A DNA stretch of 64,000 nucleotides from Escherichia phage GoldenSnicker: sequence record OR896832.1. The stretch is one strand, 5' to 3'. A model generated the notes under the pieces. It was given only the letters and a program-made list of their open reading frames with translations, searched no databases and was not told the origin of the DNA. Below are positions 16,169 through 25,150 of the stretch, one piece after another (the stretch's first letter is position 1; each line of letters starts with the position of its first letter). The translations under genes were made by a program, and so were the position numbers.

Positions 16169-18412
16169 TTACAGCTTGCAAGATGAGCACTCGCTAGCGT
16201 CTTCCGTACCATCAGCACCGTCGCGAACGTTCGCATAATACAGGGTTTTCAGACCGTAATATTGAGCAAACAACATATCATCTAACACATCAGCAATATC
16301 GACTTTACCAGTCTTATAAGTGCTTGGATCGTAGGATGTGTTGGAACTAATCGCCTGATCCACAAACTTCTGCATGATCGCTGCCAGTGTCAGATAAGGC
16401 TTGTTACCTTTCTTGATCAGTGTCCAAAGCAGGTCAATAACATCAGCATTATTCTCTACGTTCGGAATAACCTGATTAAATTGCCCTTCTTTCGATCCTT
16501 TAACCGATACAATCCCGCGAGGCGGTTCAATACCATTTGTGCTGTTAGACACCTGAGAGGACGACTCACAAGGCATCAGCGCCGACAGTGTACTGTTACG
16601 AATGCCATATTTTTTCAGGTCTTCGCGCAGTTCTTCCCAATCCATCTCATACACCGGATCAACCAGTTCATCTACTGTCTTTTTGTACCAGTCGATAGGA
16701 AGTTCACCGCGACCATAGCGTGTTTCGTGCATCAGTTCGCAAGCACCCTTCTCTTTAGCCAGTTGCACACTAGCCTTAATCAGAGCATATTGCAAGCGTT
16801 CAAACGTTTTATGCGTAAACTCGTTAGCGTCTTCATATGTGAAGAAATTATCTGCTAGATATGATGCAAAGTTAGTCACACCAACACCCAGAGAGCGACG
16901 TTTTTTGGCTGTCAGAGCTTGTTCTACAGGATAATCCTGATAATCTAACAGGTTGTCAAGTGCACGCACCATAACCATAGCAATGCGTTCTACTTCTTCC
17001 ATATTTTCGATATCGAAATTACCTAAAACATATGCTGCCAAAGTACATAGGCTAATTTCTGAATCATCACGACCCATCGGTTTTGTAGGCAGAGCAATTT
17101 CACAACACAGGTTAGATTGTTTAATCGGTGCTACATTACGAATAAACGCCCCGTGATTGTTCATGTTGTCTGTGAACGCTGGGTAGATTCGACCAGTGTT
17201 AAAACGTTCAATTGCCACCGCTAAAAACAGGTCTTCGGCTTTAACACGAGTTTTACGAACACTCGGATCTTTTTCCAGTTTTTCGTAAAGCTGGCGGAAA
17301 CCTTCCTCATCTCGGAAGTATAGATCCCACAACAAGCCACCCGCAACATCTGGACTAAACAGAGTAATGTAATCCCGTTTAAGGAATCGCTCTACCATCA
17401 GGTTATTAATCTGTACGCCGTAATCAAGATGACGAATGCGGTTATCTTCCACCCCCTTATTGTTCTTTAACACAATCAGACTTTCAAACTCTAAATGCCA
17501 CATTGGGTAATAGAGAGTCGCTGCCCCGCCACGAATACCGCCTTGTGAGCATGACTTAACGGCAGTCTGAAAATGTTTCCAGAATGGGATAACGCCAGTA
17601 TGACGAACTTCACCATGCCCGATCTTAGACCCTTCCGCGCGAATCATGCCAGCGTTGATACCGATACCAGCACGCTTGCTAATATACTTAATGATTGCAT
17701 TTGCGGTTTCATTAATACCCTGCAATGAGTCATCACTTTCAATCACCACACACGAACTAAATTGGCGTGTTGGGGTACGCACACCTGCCATAATCGGAGT
17801 AGGCAGAGAGATTTGCTTATTCGCAACAGCATTATAAAAATCAATCACATGTTCAAGTCGATTTTCTGTCTCTTCTTGATGCAAGCACATACCGATCAGC
17901 ATATACGCAAATTGCGGTGTTTCGATGATTTTCTTAGTGCTGCGATCCTGAACAAGATATTTCTCTTTTAACTGCATCGCACCAGCATAGGTCATTTTAA
18001 AATCAAGTTTATGGTCGATGAATTTCTCCAGATATTCCACTTCTTCACGGGAATACTTTTGTAGAATTTCGCGATCATATTTTCCGGTTGCAATATTACG
18101 CTCAATATGGCTATAAAAATCAATAGGTTGGAATTGACCGTATACTGATTTACGAAGCGCGAACATTGCAAGGTTACTTGCTACATATTGATAATCAGGC
18201 GTTTCTACAGTGATGTTATCTGCGGCGACCTTAATCAATACTTTCTGGATATCATTGGTAGACATACCTTCTGTCAGAAGTGGTTCAACCATATCAAACA
18301 ATTCATATGGATCAACGTTATGACCTTCGGCTGCCGCTTCCAGAATTTTCATTACTTTTTCTTTTTCAAACGGAACAGTCAGACCGGAAGACTTAACAAC
18401 ATTTTTAATCAT
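16169..18412 (-). CDS. nrdA: ribonucleotide reductase large subunit
   Basis: 747 aa; near-colinear with T4/E. coli NrdA (PTRQFSSCVVIE, NLCCEIA, SALMPCESSSQVSNSTNG, C-terminal CSSCKL). Confidence 0.9.
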   Translation of the reverse strand: MIKNVVKSSGLTVPFEKEKVMKILEAAAEGHNVDPYELFDMVEPLLTEGMSTNDIQKVLIKVAADNITVETPDYQYVASNLAMFALRKSVYGQFQPIDFYSHIERNIATGKYDREILQKYSREEVEYLEKFIDHKLDFKMTYAGAMQLKEKYLVQDRSTKKIIETPQFAYMLIGMCLHQEETENRLEHVIDFYNAVANKQISLPTPIMAGVRTPTRQFSSCVVIESDDSLQGINETANAIIKYISKRAGIGINAGMIRAEGSKIGHGEVRHTGVIPFWKHFQTAVKSCSQGGIRGGAATLYYPMWHLEFESLIVLKNNKGVEDNRIRHLDYGVQINNLMVERFLKRDYITLFSPDVAGGLLWDLYFRDEEGFRQLYEKLEKDPSVRKTRVKAEDLFLAVAIERFNTGRIYPAFTDNMNNHGAFIRNVAPIKQSNLCCEIALPTKPMGRDDSEISLCTLAAYVLGNFDIENMEEVERIAMVMVRALDNLLDYQDYPVEQALTAKKRRSLGVGVTNFASYLADNFFTYEDANEFTHKTFERLQYALIKASVQLAKEKGACELMHETRYGRGELPIDWYKKTVDELVDPVYEMDWEELREDLKKYGIRNSTLSALMPCESSSQVSNSTNGIEPPRGIVSVKGSKEGQFNQVIPNVENNADVIDLLWTLIKKGNKPYLTLAAIMQKFVDQAISSNTSYDPSTYKTGKVDIADVLDDMLFAQYYGLKTLYYANVRDGADGTEDASECSSCKL

Positions 18413-18479: not shown

Positions 18480-19700
18480 TTATACTGCCATTTGAGCGGT
18501 GATCGCTGGATGGCTTTGATAGTTGTGAATTTTAAAATCTTTCGGAGTCTTTGTCAATACCTCATCTAAAGATTTAAATTCCGGCAACTCAATTGTTGGT
18601 TTATCAAACGGAACACGGCTTAACTGTTCCATAACTTGATCAAAATGGTTTTTATAAATGTGAGTATCTCCACCAGAGAAAATCAGTTCTCCTACCTCAA
18701 GATCACACATTTTCGCTATGATGTGAGTTAACAGCGCATAGCTGGCGACGTTAAAGGGCAAGCCTAAAAAGCTGTCTACGCTTCGCTGAAACCACATACA
18801 AGACAGTTTACCTTCATTGACGTAGAATTGCACGAAAGGATGACATACACCTAACACAGCATTATGCGTTTCCTGTACGTTCCATGAATCAATGATAATA
18901 CGACGACTATATGGATCATTCTTGATCATGTCAATAACTTTTTGTAACTGGTCTTCCCAAATCTTCGGGCGATAGACATATTCTTCATCGTCTTTAGTGC
19001 TTGATGTGTCTACGTCCATACTAACAAACATCGTGGTATCCGGTGCTATAATATCCCCACCCAGATAATCACTATCAAGCAGATAACCGAAATAACCATC
19101 ATCTACCCATTCCTGGAATCCCCACAAGCAATATGCATCATTAACAAAATTAGATTGAGTCTTCCAGTGGTCTGCTACCAGAATATAATCAAACTCTTCA
19201 TAACGCATACCACGCCAGATAGCACATAAACGGTCTTCTGTTTCATTGGTTGGCGTAAAGTCTTCTACCCACGGGTGTTTAAATGTATGTGTATATTTGC
19301 TCTTAACGCGCTTAATTTTGATTTCACCGTGTGGATGAATCGGTTTGCGTCGCCACGCCATACCATACATATTGCCGACATTATAACCATTGAATCGCAA
19401 AGGATTCTTTTCTTTCATATCAAGGCAGTTTCCGCGCCAAATATCAAAGGCTTCCTCGTCAAACTTGCCGCGTGTAATTTCCTGTAAGCGACGGCGGTCA
19501 AGTGACCCCTCCATAAACCATAGCAACTCGCCAATTATAGAGGCTGTAGCCATCTTTTTAGTGGTCAGTAATGGAAAACCCTTACTTAAATCAATTCGCA
19601 TCTCTGCGCCGAATTTAGAGAGCGTACCTACCCCAGTTCGGTCTTCACGAGGCCAGCCATTATCAAGAACATCACGCAACAGTTTCAAATATTCTTTCAT
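18480..19700 (-). CDS. td: thymidylate synthase with ~110-aa internal insertion
   Basis: ThyA motifs (DRTGTG-like, DSWNV, CHPFVQFY, FLGLPFNVASYALL, GDTHIY); extra segment between the GxxWR and DPxSRR motifs; no intron. Confidence 0.85.
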   Translation of the reverse strand: MKEYLKLLRDVLDNGWPREDRTGVGTLSKFGAEMRIDLSKGFPLLTTKKMATASIIGELLWFMEGSLDRRRLQEITRGKFDEEAFDIWRGNCLDMKEKNPLRFNGYNVGNMYGMAWRRKPIHPHGEIKIKRVKSKYTHTFKHPWVEDFTPTNETEDRLCAIWRGMRYEEFDYILVADHWKTQSNFVNDAYCLWGFQEWVDDGYFGYLLDSDYLGGDIIAPDTTMFVSMDVDTSSTKDDEEYVYRPKIWEDQLQKVIDMIKNDPYSRRIIIDSWNVQETHNAVLGVCHPFVQFYVNEGKLSCMWFQRSVDSFLGLPFNVASYALLTHIIAKMCDLEVGELIFSGGDTHIYKNHFDQVMEQLSRVPFDKPTIELPEFKSLDEVLTKTPKDFKIHNYQSHPAITAQMAV

Positions 19701-19935: not shown

Positions 19936-20027
19936 TATTGTTCCCGTCCGCAGTGTAAACACCGACTACCAACAAACATCAAAGATTCACCGCAATGTTT
20001 GCACTCATAATCTGTCAGAATTTTCAT
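19935..20027 (-). CDS. 30-aa zinc-ribbon peptide
   Basis: MKILTDYECKHCGESLMFVGSRCLHCGREQ, two CxxC pairs, translated by hand; below the ORF-track size cutoff. Confidence 0.4.
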   Translation of the reverse strand: MKILTDYECKHCGESLMFVGSRCLHCGREQ

Positions 20028-20028
20028 G

Positions 20029-20610
20029 TTACGCCTTCTTACGTTCTAAAATTTGCTCACTGATCAGGTAATTATCAAGGAAGTAATTATGTTCTTCTTT
20101 TGCTGCAAAGTCAAAATATAATTCCTGAATCATTTCCTTAGATATACCAACATCATATTCGAACGGATCATTAATTCCTGCTCGTTGAACATACGTTAAC
20201 ACAATACGGTCCGCAAAGTCAACCGCTTTTTCAATCAGGGAAGGTCCGCCAATAACGCTTACCAAACCTTGCAATTTCTCTATGACTTCTAATAATTCCT
20301 TCAATCCACCATCATTAGTAATCGCGGTATACACATCTGGTTGGTCGCCGTTTTTTGCTTTCGGTGCTGGCTTACTGGTATCGGTGCTAACAACCACATT
20401 CACACGACCTTCCAGTGCTTTAGGGAGACTTTCAAAGGTATTACGTCCCATTACAACCGCCGCAAGTTCAACATCTCCCATAGTGCGCATTTTAAAGTTT
20501 TCCATGTCCTTTTTAATTGGACGCCCCCAGGGTAAACCGCCTTTAAAACCAAAAGCCCAATTTTCATCTGACATTTTAGTGTCACCAATAGCAAATACAC
20601 ATTGAATCAT
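20029..20610 (-). CDS. frd: dihydrofolate reductase
   Basis: AFGxxGGLPWGRPIKKDMENFK and VIGGP motifs; size and position as T4 frd. Confidence 0.8.
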   Translation of the reverse strand: MIQCVFAIGDTKMSDENWAFGFKGGLPWGRPIKKDMENFKMRTMGDVELAAVVMGRNTFESLPKALEGRVNVVVSTDTSKPAPKAKNGDQPDVYTAITNDGGLKELLEVIEKLQGLVSVIGGPSLIEKAVDFADRIVLTYVQRAGINDPFEYDVGISKEMIQELYFDFAAKEEHNYFLDNYLISEQILERKKA

Positions 20611-20625
20611 AATATAAATCTCCCA

Positions 20626-20955
20626 TCAAATCAGTTTGAAATAGTTTTCGTTTACATTTTCTTCTGTGATTGCTGTCTTAAATTCTTGACCGTTATCCGG
20701 TGTGATGAAATAACGGTCAGAATAATCACGAAAACGTTTTAAGTGAGATACCCCAACATTAACACCATTTTCCCAAAAACGAAAGGTAATCATTTTTGGT
20801 TCATATCGATAGTCGCTGGTTAACACAGTACCATCCCCGCGACGGGCTTCATAAACCGTAATACATTCACGATTAGCGGCTTTAAGGCATTCTTCAATAG
20901 TGCCGCACGAGATAATACTTACTTTTTCATCTACGATTTGTTCTACAGTCCACAT
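20626..20955 (-). CDS. hypothetical protein
   Basis: about 110 aa from the internal Met. Confidence 0.4.
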   Translation of the reverse strand: MWTVEQIVDEKVSIISCGTIEECLKAANRECITVYEARRGDGTVLTSDYRYEPKMITFRFWENGVNVGVSHLKRFRDYSDRYFITPDNGQEFKTAITEENVNENYFKLI

Positions 20956-21002
20956 AATATAATCCTCTCTTTGTTTCGATATGTGCATTATACACTATTG
21001 CG

Positions 21003-22181
21003 TTACGCTGTCAACTCTTTTTCAAAAGATTTTACGATATACATGATGGTGCTCAATTCGGACGGCGCTACTGTCTCTGTGTAGCCATCCGGCATATCTT
21101 CTTTCGAGATATAGGAAGTTTTACCTTTCATTACTTCCTTGATTTTGTTCTCTAATTCTAAGATCTTTTGACCGTCTTGTAAAGTCAATTCATAAAAGAT
21201 CTCATGATCGAACTTTGAAACACGAGATTGGTTTCTCATGCGCTCATGTGTTTCTTTGTTTGTTATTCCAAATTTCACGCCAACAAAGGAATCATTGTTG
21301 GTTAATTTCTGTATATAAAGAGTTCCTGTCTTTAATGCCTGATAACCATGCTTAGAACACAACGGGCAGCGTGTTCCGCGATTAACAAAATTATCAATAG
21401 TTACATCCCATTCATGGTTACGTTCGCATGTCAGAAGTATTCTTGTTAATGCACCTTTCCACTTTCCTGAAATCCCAATAAATTTTAGTCTGTTGGTTTC
21501 GCATATTTTTTCAATTTGTTTTAATCGGTCACTTTTTGTTATTGGTGCTGTTCCGCTACATTTGCGACACCGACGACCTAGTTTGAACTTATCATAACTT
21601 TGTTCGTAAATGTGATTATTAGGACACTCAAATTTAAGTTTAGTTTTTGTTCCTCTCCATTCCCCAATTATACCCAAAAATTTATAATCTCCTTTATTTT
21701 CATTTATATAAGATAAGGAATCTTCTTTATCATGCATCTTGCCCCCGTTACATAAAGGACATCTTGTTTTTTGATGAATGAAATCTGTATATGTTGGTTG
21801 GTATGTGTGTCCGTTTGTACAGTTCATAATGAGTCTTGTTCTGCTATTTTTATACTCCCCACCAACAAAACCAACAAATACATCGTTTGTTTCTTGTTTT
21901 ATTCTTTCTATCACATTGTTTGGGTTTAATCTTTGAGAATCAACCACACATTTCTTACACGAAACGTTTTTCCTGATATTTGCTAGAGTTGATGTGTATT
22001 CATGCTTGTTATTACATAATATAAGAGCTTTTGTTTTGAGACCAGACCATTCTCCAACAAACCCCATGAAAGAATAACCAACTTCCAAACATGAATTTTT
22101 TACAACATTTTCCCAATAGAAGGGAGTTTTCGTGTTTCCTTTTATTTCTATACTAATCTCATGTGCTTGACGTACTAACAT
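21003..22181 (-). CDS. protein with four tandem C-H-C-C zinc-ribbon repeats and a GIY-YIG-like C-terminal domain
   Basis: four ~66-aa repeats (F[VI]GxxGxWxGxxT...C..NxH...F...RCxxC); C-terminus LYIQKL...GVKFGIT...R resembles the T5orf172/GIY-YIG family. Confidence 0.6.
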   Translation of the reverse strand: MLVRQAHEISIEIKGNTKTPFYWENVVKNSCLEVGYSFMGFVGEWSGLKTKALILCNNKHEYTSTLANIRKNVSCKKCVVDSQRLNPNNVIERIKQETNDVFVGFVGGEYKNSRTRLIMNCTNGHTYQPTYTDFIHQKTRCPLCNGGKMHDKEDSLSYINENKGDYKFLGIIGEWRGTKTKLKFECPNNHIYEQSYDKFKLGRRCRKCSGTAPITKSDRLKQIEKICETNRLKFIGISGKWKGALTRILLTCERNHEWDVTIDNFVNRGTRCPLCSKHGYQALKTGTLYIQKLTNNDSFVGVKFGITNKETHERMRNQSRVSKFDHEIFYELTLQDGQKILELENKIKEVMKGKTSYISKEDMPDGYTETVAPSELSTIMYIVKSFEKELTA

Positions 22182-22213
22182 ATTTTTATCCTCCGTTGTT
22201 TCGATGATTGTGT

Positions 22214-22241
22214 ATTATACATTACCACATCAGCATGTCAA
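22214..22241 (-). promoter_or_regulatory. sigma70-type early promoter
   Basis: TTGACA (22241..22236), 16 bp, TATAAT (22219..22214). Confidence 0.5.
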
Positions 22242-22271
22242 TACATTTTCATAAAATTTTAGGCAATAAAA

Positions 22272-22295
22272 AAAGCCTTCCCGAAGGAAGGCTTT
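22272..22295 (-). terminator. rho-independent terminator
   Basis: hairpin gccttcc-cgaa-ggaaggc flanked by A-run and T-run, downstream of gene 32. Confidence 0.65.
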
Positions 22296-22303
22296 AAAAT
22301 TCA

Positions 22304-23272
22304 TTACATCCCTAACAGAGCGTCAAGATCATCCAGATCAGAAGCGGAGGAAGTACCGCCACCCAGGTCCAGAGATGCCATCAGGTCATCAGCGGAAGAA
22401 TCTAACGCCGTGCTAGCTGCGTTAATACCAACTACAGTGCTAGCTGCGGTAGTACCAGCGTCGAATGCATTCATCTGTGCGTCAAAATCATCAAGCTGGC
22501 TGTTAATCGCTGCCGCAGCACTGGAAGCCGCAGCACCAGCTACCATAGAAACGCCCATAGTTTTCTTAAATTTGGTTTCCAGTTCATCGAACGGTTTAAA
22601 CTGGCTAGGAGCTACAATCTCACTCAGATCAACCATGTTTTCCATCAGATATTTCTGATATTCTTCGTCTTCAATTTTCGGAAGCTGTGATTGCTGCATG
22701 AAACGAGAATCATCATAGTTCTGGTGTTTATCAACCTTCTTAGCTTTCAGGAGGAAGTTAGCACCGGAGAACACACAAGTTACATCTACCGGAACTTCGC
22801 CCATGTCGGTATTCACGTTCACCATTGCAACGATCTTATCATAAATTTTCTGACCGAATCGGAATTTGAATACCTTACCTTCATTTTCTGGTGCTTGAGG
22901 ATCTTTCAGTACCAGAATATTTGCGTAGTAAGAGGCTTTACGCTTAATCAGTTGCCATTCTGTTTTATCGGTATTGTACAGATCTTTTTCGTTAATATAT
23001 TTGCACACAGGACAAGAATCAAAATCACCGTGGGTGCTGGAGCAGTTTTCCCAATACCATTTGCCATTAACTTTGAAGGAATGGTTTACCAGTTTCACAA
23101 TCGGCAGACCGTCTTCTGTCTTAGACGGCAGGAAGCGAATCAGGGCTTCACCGTTACCTGCTGCATCAGTCTTAATCTTCCACTCTTTCGGATCTTCTTT
23201 GGAGAAACCGTTGCCACCTTTCAGTGCGGCCAGTTGAGCTTGAAGTTTGGAAGAATCTTGGCGTTTAAACAT
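22304..23272 (-). CDS. 32: single-stranded DNA-binding protein
   Basis: strong colinearity with T4 gp32 (MFKR, FLPSK, NHxFKxNGKWY, [30 protein letters not shown]). Confidence 0.9.
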
Positions 23273-23332
23273 ATTCACTATTCCTTCTTTTGATTGATTT
23301 ACTAGACTATTATACAGATTTAAGTTTACTTG

Positions 23333-24013
23333 TCAACTATTTGTTTCTGCTTTTAATTGAGATATTTCTTTACACTCTTTAACTACTTTAACAAATAATG
23401 CTCTTGCTTTTGCGGCGTCAATAACAAGTAGTTTCTTGTACGCCTTCATTTTAACACTATAAGTTTGCCAAATCAAGTCTTTGGCTACCTTGTCGTGTTC
23501 GTCGATTATATTTAGAAAGCTATCTAACAACATAAACGACTCAAACGATATAATCCGATTTTGCAGTAGTTTAAAAATACCGCTTGTTTCGGTTGCGGGA
23601 TTATATGTAATTAGCTCTTTAAGAGTAACCCCGCGTTTCTCTGAGAAGTATACAAGACTTTTAATGTCATCGTCAAATCTTGTTGCTGCATCGGTTATCT
23701 TTCCTATGTATTCCATATAAAAGCCGTATGCGTCAACATCAGTGATTTCACCTACCCATGCATCGGTATTAGCTACCAGATTGCTTAGGAATAGGAAGTA
23801 TAATTCTCTTAGATTGTACTTTTCCGCTAATTTTGCGAAATAATACTTATCTCTGCGTTTATTGAATGCGGCATCAGACAACCGCATCCTCCAATTGTAT
23901 TTTACGCAATCATAACGCCCGTTCATGTGAGCTTTCATCATGCAATATAACATATACACAGATTTAGCATTAATTCGCATATCTGGATCTGGAGGAAGAC
24001 GGTTTCTGATCAT
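23333..24013 (-). CDS. 59: helicase loader gp59
   Basis: GKSVYMLY...HMNGRYD...KYNW...RRDKYYF...LVANTDAW match T4 gp59. Confidence 0.85.
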   Translation of the reverse strand: MIRNRLPPDPDMRINAKSVYMLYCMMKAHMNGRYDCVKYNWRMRLSDAAFNKRRDKYYFAKLAEKYNLRELYFLFLSNLVANTDAWVGEITDVDAYGFYMEYIGKITDAATRFDDDIKSLVYFSEKRGVTLKELITYNPATETSGIFKLLQNRIISFESFMLLDSFLNIIDEHDKVAKDLIWQTYSVKMKAYKKLLVIDAAKARALFVKVVKECKEISQLKAETNS

Positions 24014-24550: not shown

Positions 24551-25150
24551 TTAACCCTCTTTCGTCATTAATTGAAAACCACGTTCAGCTTTTGAAATTT
24601 CGCTAGGACTTAAATCGTCACCAACATATTCTAGCATCATTTCTCGGATAATGTCAAGTGCTTTTTCATCACCTGATTTTAACTCGAACTCAAGTTCATA
24701 ATGAGCAGTGTTTCCCAATCCTTCGCCTACTTTGCCATAATAGAAAGTGTCTTTGCACATTTCCACTATACCACAACCCATATCTAGAGTCAATGACTTG
24801 CGATATGTCATTACTTGCATTATTGCAGTGATATAGTCGGAGTTTACCCCTAGACTATCAATAAAATGGACGAACTCATCCCAATTTGAAAATGTCATTT
24901 CCTCGCGGTTGAATAGTCCAGATTCATTATCACCCATTTTGACCATGATCTCTGATTTTCTACAGTCAAGTCGTGCATAAATTCCTTTTTGACGTAGCGC
25001 ATGATCTTCGGTATCATAATAAAATTCGTGTTTTAATATGTTATCTCGGTCTAAGAGATTGTACCCGTCATACATTGCCACCCACAAATCACAGATGGTT
25101 TCGACGCCAATTTGTGAGTGTGCATAGTATTTTAATTCAAGTTCTTTCAT
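24551..25150 (-). CDS. CYTH-domain (triphosphate tunnel metalloenzyme / class IV adenylate cyclase-like) protein
   Basis: N-terminal ELELKYY (ExExK) and C-terminal YELEFELK acidic strands typical of the CYTH fold; 199 aa. Confidence 0.5.
   Translation of the reverse strand: MKELELKYYAHSQIGVETICDLWVAMYDGYNLLDRDNILKHEFYYDTEDHALRQKGIYARLDCRKSEIMVKMGDNESGLFNREEMTFSNWDEFVHFIDSLGVNSDYITAIMQVMTYRKSLTLDMGCGIVEMCKDTFYYGKVGEGLGNTAHYELEFELKSGDEKALDIIREMMLEYVGDDLSPSEISKAERGFQLMTKEG

Follow-up and report, generated by a model that had tools for sequence, protein, structure and literature searches.

A putative homing endonuclease gene with four CapR-type zinc fingers between frd and gene 32 of Escherichia phage GoldenSnicker

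RESULTS AND DISCUSSION

The window analyzed here is a stretch of 64,000 nucleotides (nt) from Escherichia phage GoldenSnicker (sequence record OR896832.1). Between frd and gene 32 it carries an open reading frame (ORF) of 392 amino acids (aa) which, in our view, is probably an active, free-standing homing endonuclease gene of the T5orf172 type with an array of four CapR-type zinc-finger modules, and for which recombination between promoter cassettes is an additional route of exchange. The coding sequence (21003..22181, minus strand, stop codon included) begins at an ATG that is preceded, at a distance of 8 nt, by a GGAGG ribosome-binding site, in keeping with an earlier note, made from the sequence alone, that had proposed a gene here. 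We describe the architecture, fold, residue conservation, and regulatory signals of this gene, the polymorphism of its locus, and an island of near identity that it shares with its relatives. The protein matches PHROG 681, "endonuclease" (E = 1.9e-100), and tblastn searches returned relatives in 684 phage records and no paralog within the 64-kb window. In deposited records, the gene is mostly named "hypothetical protein," while RefSeq has "endonuclease" and one record has "putative GIY-YIG nuclease family protein."

Tandem CapR-type zinc-finger modules

The protein begins with a 34-aa segment (22080..22181; all features of the gene are on the minus strand) that contains a helix at aa 20-34 in the AlphaFold secondary structure and whose first ~9 aa (MLVRxAHEI) are common to the window protein and the allele of phage JEP8. 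Four tandem repeats follow, which we delimited by anchoring on Cys positions into units of ~65 aa. Their candidate ligands are C56, H60, C75, and C78 in module 1 (21885..22079; aa 35-99); C121, H125, C141, and C144 in module 2 (21690..21884; aa 100-164); C186, H190, C205, and C208 in module 3 (21492..21689; aa 165-230); and C252, H256, C272, and C275 in module 4 (21327..21491; aa 231-285). The pattern C-x3-H...C-x2-C is thus present in all four repeats, and among 52 homologs, conservation at the Cys positions is 90% or higher. A self-BLASTP search of the protein returned only the diagonal, off-diagonal matches having probably been culled, and we used piecewise alignment with shuffled controls instead. 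For every pair of repeats, the local alignment score was 11 to 18 standard deviations above those of shuffles, none of 1,000 shuffles reaching the real score, and so the four tandem repeats of ~66 aa reported in the earlier note are well supported.

The same note had called these repeats zinc ribbons. Assignment to a zinc-finger family holds, since the protein matches the Pfam CapR homology domain PF21817 in four stretches (E = 7.7e-29; 100.1 bits against a cut-off of 24.2; best stretch at aa 221-276, at module 4) and DUF4379, PF14311, a "probable treble clef zinc finger" (E = 1.8e-11; 44.5 bits against a cut-off of 24.5). The ribbon label seems less apt, since the predicted topology looks treble-clef-like rather than like that of a classical zinc ribbon. 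In the AlphaFold model, each unit starts with a helix, continues with three strands and a second, short helix, and then reaches the CxxC, with a Cys/His knuckle in the hairpin of strands 2 and 3; the CxxC lies at the N terminus of a helix in repeats 1 and 3, while repeats 2 and 4 have no predicted helix at the second ligand pair. The model of the whole protein has a mean predicted local distance difference test score (pLDDT) of 87.7 and a predicted template modeling score (pTM) of 0.35, the latter being low, as expected, because the modules are independent and sit on linkers. A Foldseek search of the whole 392-aa model against the PDB returned nothing at E ≤ 0.001, a null result that is expected for a beads-on-a-string model with this pTM and that leaves the finger fold unclassifiable by structure search.

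The repeats are 28-43% identical in protein sequence (34-43% in the pairwise local alignments) and ~50% identical in codon-aligned nucleotide sequence, and they are old. We reject recent internal duplication within the window allele in view of the ~50% nucleotide identity. By analogy with their family, the modules would be expected to bind zinc and to bind DNA sequence specifically; such binding is shown only for CapR itself (PMC8096241).

A diverged GIY-YIG nuclease domain at the C terminus

The last 107 aa (21006..21326; aa 286-392) form a nuclease domain of the GIY-YIG superfamily (T5orf172/MUG113 type). The motifs LYIQKL and VKFGIT and the Arg that the earlier note had singled out are present in this part, the Arg at position 314, and the T5orf172/GIY-YIG resemblance that it drew from them is borne out by the predicted fold and by homologs that match MUG113 or T5orf172 in the same region. 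A HMMER search of the full library with aa 279-392 as the query returned 428 homologs at E ≤ 0.001. Among 126 of these that were scanned, 48 have a MUG113 match and 18 a T5orf172 match. For example, homolog P0069 matches MUG113 at 25.9 bits (cut-off, 22.3) in the region that aligns to the tail at E = 2.9e-16, and P0073 matches T5orf172 at 22.9 bits (cut-off, 20) in the region that aligns at E = 1.2e-14.

The domain modeled alone is confidently predicted to adopt the GIY-YIG fold (pLDDT, 96.2; pTM, 0.87), with a beta-beta-alpha-beta-alpha core formed by strands at domain positions 8-17 and 20-29, a helix at 33-43, a strand at 47-56, and a helix at 59-72. In BFVD, 87 viral proteins match this model at E ≤ 0.001, under names that include "GIY-YIG domain-containing," "Bacteriophage T5 Orf172," and "Homing endonuclease." A profile search of the tail against PDB sequences gave only noise from designed repeat proteins (E ≥ 0.15). 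The key residues of the tail are Y289, K303-F304-G305, R314, E344, and G366-x-T-E-T370. None of Y289, K303, G305, R314, E344, G366, E369, and T370 varies among 126 diverse sequences, and F304 is at least 90% conserved in a 52-sequence alignment and invariant in a 37-sequence one. These residues correspond to the GIY Tyr, to a K-[IF]-G equivalent of YIG, and to the catalytic Arg and Glu.

We regard the family placement of both the fingers and the nuclease domain as secure. By analogy with characterized members, the protein would cleave DNA at a target site and thereby home. The closest experimental precedent is Odn (Gp88) of phage ICP1, a T5orf172 nuclease that cleaves DNA in vitro and that is inactivated by mutation of the equivalent Glu (Barth et al. 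2021, PMC8263062); it is the sole case of experimentally shown cleavage that we encountered for this domain type. Odn and the window protein share the T5orf172-type GIY-YIG domain with its conserved Arg and Glu. They differ in that the DNA-binding part of Odn is a RepA_N domain captured from a satellite, with a role in anti-satellite defense, whereas the window protein has zinc fingers.

Could the protein instead be a noncatalytic, multifinger DNA-binding regulator, as the earlier note had also entertained? CapR is the zinc-finger repressor of the capsid operon encoded by the Vibrio cholerae satellite PLE, and it descends from N-terminal domains of T5orf172 homing endonucleases encoded by ICP1 (Netter et al. 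2021, PMC8096241). The window fingers are homologous to it and belong to the same family, PF21817, and CapR is a proven repressor of a phage promoter, with four conserved Cys residues that are required for DNA binding (PMC8096241). Furthermore, the GIY-YIG enzyme I-TevI represses its own promoter (cited in PMC8263062). Against a purely regulatory role, the CapR-like sequences of ICP1 are described as the N-terminal domains of proteins with T5orf172 at their C termini (PMC8096241); CapR appears to stand alone as a transcriptional repressor without a T5orf172 domain, whereas the window protein combines four fingers with an intact nuclease domain. The first knuckle also differs, being C-x3-H in the window protein and CxxC in CapR. 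With the nuclease domain retained, the GIY-YIG fold confidently predicted, and Y289, R314, and E344 invariant, we consider a regulator-only protein highly improbable, mainly because the catalytic-type residues are invariant in 126 homologs.

Variation of the frd-32 slot among Krischvirus phages

We compared the interval between gene 32 and the orf120 homolog adjoining frd across related phages. GEC-3S, G37-3, Skers, AV108, and FL15 carry the 392-aa, four-finger allele. RB49 encodes a protein of 485 aa with five fingers, JEP8 one of 541 aa with six (L006 2504-4129), and MIZ4 one of 182 aa with a single finger and a diverged tail. In E26 and kvi, an unrelated 109-aa ORFan occupies the place of the endonuclease gene, while Ec_Makalu_001 has the ORFan (L007 1300-1629) and a four-finger gene (L007 1675-2853) in tandem. 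No Pfam family matches the ORFan, whose copies in 28 phage records are 96-100% identical. A conserved tail (at least 94% identity) is present in 23 phage records and a diverged tail (45-57%) in seven, namely, five Krischvirus-type and two Klebsiella phages. In a set of 39 proteins from metagenomes and genomes that have the tail in common, the number of fingers varies from 0 to 6. Altogether, the patchy presence of the gene at this locus among Krischvirus genomes supports the claim of the earlier note that it is not a T4 core gene and, together with the CapR/DUF4379 fingers and the GIY-YIG tail, favors its suggestion of a homing-endonuclease-like element with a multifinger array. The recent duplication that the note had proposed for the window repeats finds its place in another allele: the modules of JEP8 are 57-79% identical among themselves, against 28-36% for those of the window allele, and represent a recent tandem amplification.

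The positions at which alleles part company are informative. DNA similarity between the window and RB49 ends at 21317 and resumes at 22179, an interval that coincides exactly with the finger array; the DNA of the nuclease domain is part of the conserved backbone. Against JEP8 the breaks fall at 21287 and 22155, and against E26 and kvi at 21022 and 22177, in promoter elements. In protein alignments, the last ~70 aa are near-identical across alleles, while the first ~45 residues of the nuclease domain and the finger arrays differ, a pattern consistent with crossover points that vary in position within the nuclease domain. In Makalu_001, the ORFan and the endonuclease gene may each be led by a similar promoter/leader, judging from the E26 alignment. 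The slot as a whole behaves like an array of promoter-led cassettes.

These exchanges invite a bolder interpretation, in which the slot holds a natural series of "zinc-finger nucleases": a near-invariant, backbone-anchored GIY-YIG-type cutter would be re-armed by swapped or amplified arrays of one to six CapR-type modules, each array directed to a different long target. We think this unlikely. Were it true, the alleles would constitute a retargetable weapon in the contest of relatives that infect the same cell, and a recognition code that can be deciphered might govern the modules.

Signs of recent movement

Base-by-base comparison of the window with four phages that share its allele (GEC-3S, G37-3, Makalu_001, and Skers) revealed that the segment 21201-22181 is 98.5-100% identical in all four. 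The flanks are less similar, at 78-97% overall; by feature, identity is 91-97% for frd, 78-99% for orf120, 89-100% for the promoter/terminator region, and 96-98% for gene 32. In Fisher tests on GEC-3S, Makalu_001, and Skers, the island has significantly too few mismatches in each case (P values of 9e-9, 1e-8, and 3e-20, respectively). Within the gene, synonymous divergence (dS) of the finger array is only 0-0.018. In the 3' nuclease part, dS is 0.10-0.16 and the ratio of nonsynonymous to synonymous divergence (dN/dS) is 0.03-0.12 in comparisons involving Makalu_001 or Skers, while no synonymous change separates the window, GEC-3S, and G37-3. Each of the five close copies encodes an intact protein of 392 aa. 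To judge from these comparisons, the pattern looks like that of a recently spreading, still functional element.

These observations also bear on whether the gene could encode a domesticated site-specific nuclease, active but not self-propagating, that serves competition or exclusion by cutting co-infecting relatives, satellites, or host DNA to the advantage of the phage, in the manner of ICP1 Odn. The conserved catalytic-type residues would be expected of such an enzyme, and the strong early promoter and ribosome-binding site of the gene contrast with the poor expression of many homing endonuclease genes. Retargeting would be well served by a locus at which the nuclease domain stays constant and arrays of one to six modules can be exchanged, and T5orf172 nucleases have been repurposed in ICP1 (PMC8263062; PMC10448857). 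However, about half of Krischvirus genomes lack the gene, the protein has no match among the anti-phage defense families of PADLOC, no satellite or target is known, and an island of near identity that coincides with the gene is what self-propagation predicts. Moreover, for T4 Seg enzymes such as SegG, marker exclusion and homing are not mutually exclusive. We therefore find domestication quite unlikely.

A promoter-led cassette

The gene is a cassette complete in itself, with its own early promoter, that lies between gene 32 and frd. Just past the stop of gene 32 lies a strong intrinsic terminator (22272..22295, minus strand) with a ten-pair stem (five G-C), a 4-nt loop, and a T-run, which is also annotated in GEC-3S and G37-3 and which would shield the cassette from upstream transcription. 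It is followed by a sigma-70 early promoter of the endonuclease gene (22214..22241, minus strand; TTGACA-16-TATAAT, 12 of 12 positions), annotated at the same place in GEC-3S, and by the leader ATCGAAACAA and then the GGAGG ribosome-binding site (22190..22205, minus strand). A second perfect early promoter (20987..21014, minus strand), annotated in GEC-3S as well, overlaps the last codons and stop of the endonuclease gene and probably drives the downstream orf120. Promoter and leader together make up a 60-nt direct repeat whose copies (20982..21041 downstream and 22209-22268 upstream; 70% identity) bracket the cassette. The combination TATAAT-N(4-10)-ATCGAAACAA occurs twice in the window, only at the two ends of the cassette. 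Perfect TTGACA-16-TATAAT promoters number six in the window, all on the minus strand (starts at 20987, 22214, 23309, 25672, 48466, and 61065), and there are nine with at most one mismatch, with ~1 expected by chance. This abundance reflects the dense early-promoter organization, of the promoter-early stem-loop (PeSL) type, of RB49-like genomes.

PeSL cassettes mediate modular shuffling and the formation of mini-circles in RB49 and phi1 (Arbiol et al. 2010, PMC2839356). The window cassette resembles them in its strong sigma-70 promoter with an adjacent terminator stem-loop, in the second, related promoter that brackets the gene, and in the presence/absence breakpoints between close relatives that fall in these elements. 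It differs in that the downstream element lies inside coding sequence. Given this resemblance, the gene might be passive cargo of PeSL-type shuffling, moved only by homologous recombination between promoter/leader repeats, with a nuclease that is irrelevant or decaying. The bracketing 60-nt repeats are in accord with such a history, as are the restriction of the TATAAT...ATCGAAACAA leader to the two cassette ends in 64 kb, the breakpoints of the E26 and kvi alleles in promoter/leader elements, the tandem cassettes of ORFan and endonuclease gene in Makalu_001, and the recombination and mini-circles demonstrated experimentally in RB49 and phi1 (PMC2839356). A decaying nuclease is hard to reconcile with five of five close copies being intact, with low dN/dS in the nuclease part where substitutions suffice to estimate it, and with catalytic residues that are invariant in distant homologs. 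Furthermore, since the downstream "PeSL" is inside the coding sequence, array swaps would use nuclease-domain DNA as homology and not an intergenic border. We consider it very unlikely that the gene is cargo and nothing else.

A model for spread of the endonuclease gene

We instead favor an active homing endonuclease that may also travel by cassette recombination. In this model, the gene would be transcribed early from its own consensus sigma-70 promoter to yield a protein built like beads on a string, with four CapR-type Cys/His modules on helical linkers followed by the C-terminal beta-beta-alpha-beta-alpha nuclease. The fingers would read an extended DNA site, and the nuclease would cut nearby by means of Tyr289, Arg314, Glu344, and a divalent metal. 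During co-infection, a cut in a relative without the allele would be repaired from the allele-bearing genome, and the gene would be copied across. Crossovers could fall upstream in the shared promoter/leader and downstream either in the conserved 3' stretch of nuclease-domain sequence or in the embedded downstream promoter. Through the bracketing promoter/leader repeats, the gene could also be gained, lost, or swapped independently of the nuclease, by PeSL-type modular shuffling.

Several points weigh against this model. The window protein itself has no match to Pfam T5orf172 (PF10544), MUG113 (PF13455), or GIY-YIG at E ≤ 1, an NCBIfam scan of the tail gave no match to any of the three, and none is among the precomputed domains of the 60 closest relatives; the family assignment of the tail is therefore transitive and structural, and the best name for it is a diverged T5orf172/MUG113-type GIY-YIG domain. 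Ordinary recombination between the promoter repeats at either end of the cassette could account for the presence or absence of the gene and for the exchange of alleles, with no need for nuclease activity. Similarly, the identity island does not by itself tell nuclease-driven homing apart from ordinary recombination for which the promoter/leader and the conserved 3' end provide shared sequence; T4-type phages recombine freely, and identity islands are not unique to homing endonuclease genes. In the literature searched, we found no cleavage, target site, or homing event for any Krischvirus allele, and Barth et al. themselves warn against inferring homing from nothing but sequence (PMC10448857).

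Comparison with known endonucleases

Proteins of this architecture are common among phage T5orf172 homing endonucleases. Fingers of the CapR, DUF723, or DUF4379 type are present in 87% of 229 such genes, frequently with several in tandem, and "beads on a string," changes in repeat number, and domain swapping have been described for them (Barth et al. 2023, PMC10448857). Gp165 of ICP1, with four CapR stretches and a weak T5orf172 match, was recovered in a BLASTP search with the window protein at E = 6e-13. The ICP1 T5orf172 genes (e.g., Gp165 and Gp174; PMC10448857) and the window gene are alike in their N-terminal tandem CapR/DUF723/DUF4379 fingers and C-terminal T5orf172-type GIY-YIG nuclease, in a finger number that varies between alleles, and in their location at boundaries of genetic exchange. 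Unlike the ICP1 genes, the window gene belongs to the Krischvirus lineage of the Straboviridae, encodes a nuclease domain too diverged for a direct Pfam T5orf172/MUG113 match, and has its 3' end fused to the promoter of the next gene.

The location invites comparison with T4, in which SegG adjoins gene 32. T4 Seg enzymes and I-TevI have an N-terminal nuclease, whereas the order is reversed in the window protein (fingers at aa 35-285, nuclease at aa 286-392), which is therefore not a T4 Seg-type enzyme. In place of the Y-I-G of Seg and I-TevI, it has K-F-G as its second motif, and a zinc-finger array takes the place of their NUMOD/helix-turn-helix modules. In the accessible text of the 2010 comparison of RB49 and phi1, the only homing endonucleases named are an HNH gene and segC, and RB49 ORF240, the counterpart of the ORF studied here, is not among the mobile genes and endonucleases listed there (PMC2839356).

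Genome context

By megablast of the window, the phage is a Krischvirus, an RB49-like coliphage, and the region 20000-23300 is 99% identical to phages AV108 and FL15. Neighbors of the endonuclease gene are T4-type genes for replication and nucleotide metabolism: nrdA (16169-18412), td (18480-19700, minus strand), a 96-aa ORF between td and frd, frd (20029-20610), the 120-aa orf120 (20626-20988), gene 32 (22304-23278, minus strand), and gene 59 (23333-24013).

On the other side of gene 32, between it and gene 59, E26 (L003 3981-4574), kvi (L004 3996-4592), MIZ4 (L005 4466-5062), and Skers (L008 3625-3863) have an HNH endonuclease gene of ~197 aa, which is absent from the window (slot at ~23279-23332), GEC-3S, RB49, and JEP8. 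In this genus, gene 32 is thus flanked by two independent variable endonuclease slots. The C terminus of gp32 itself (22304-22450, minus strand) is a long, low-complexity tail rich in Ala, Ser, and Asp, the acidic C-terminal region; that of T4 gp32 is far less Ala/Ser rich.

Two other features of the region are lineage traits. The product of td (thymidylate synthase) has 406 aa and is matched by Pfam in two pieces, profile position 110 being taken up again only at residue 250. The in-frame insert of ~130-140 aa has no Pfam match of its own, and td is equally long in RB49 and GEC-3S; it looks like a lineage-wide domain insertion and is not obviously an intein or intron. Between dsbA and rnh, a 199-aa ORF (24551-25150, minus strand) encodes a CYTH-domain protein (Pfam E = 8e-07) that is kept in RB49 and GEC-3S. 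CYTH proteins are a family of triphosphate tunnel metalloenzymes, and we know of no member at the dsbA-rnh position in T4.

Implications

Proteins of this kind were published between 2021 and 2023, and this exact gene is already in GenBank; no experimental work on it was found in the literature searched. Current concepts are unchanged by our results, which hold no conceptual surprise. The evidence supports a specific name for a gene that is mostly deposited as "hypothetical protein," and with it a T4-type coliphage lineage gains a well-documented homing endonuclease gene of the T5orf172 type. At one locus, in an Escherichia coli system, the same nuclease tail occurs with one, four, five, or six fingers alongside relatives that lack the gene. 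This allelic series is a useful experimental handle and could serve to test both T5orf172 homing and the reading of DNA by CapR-type arrays.

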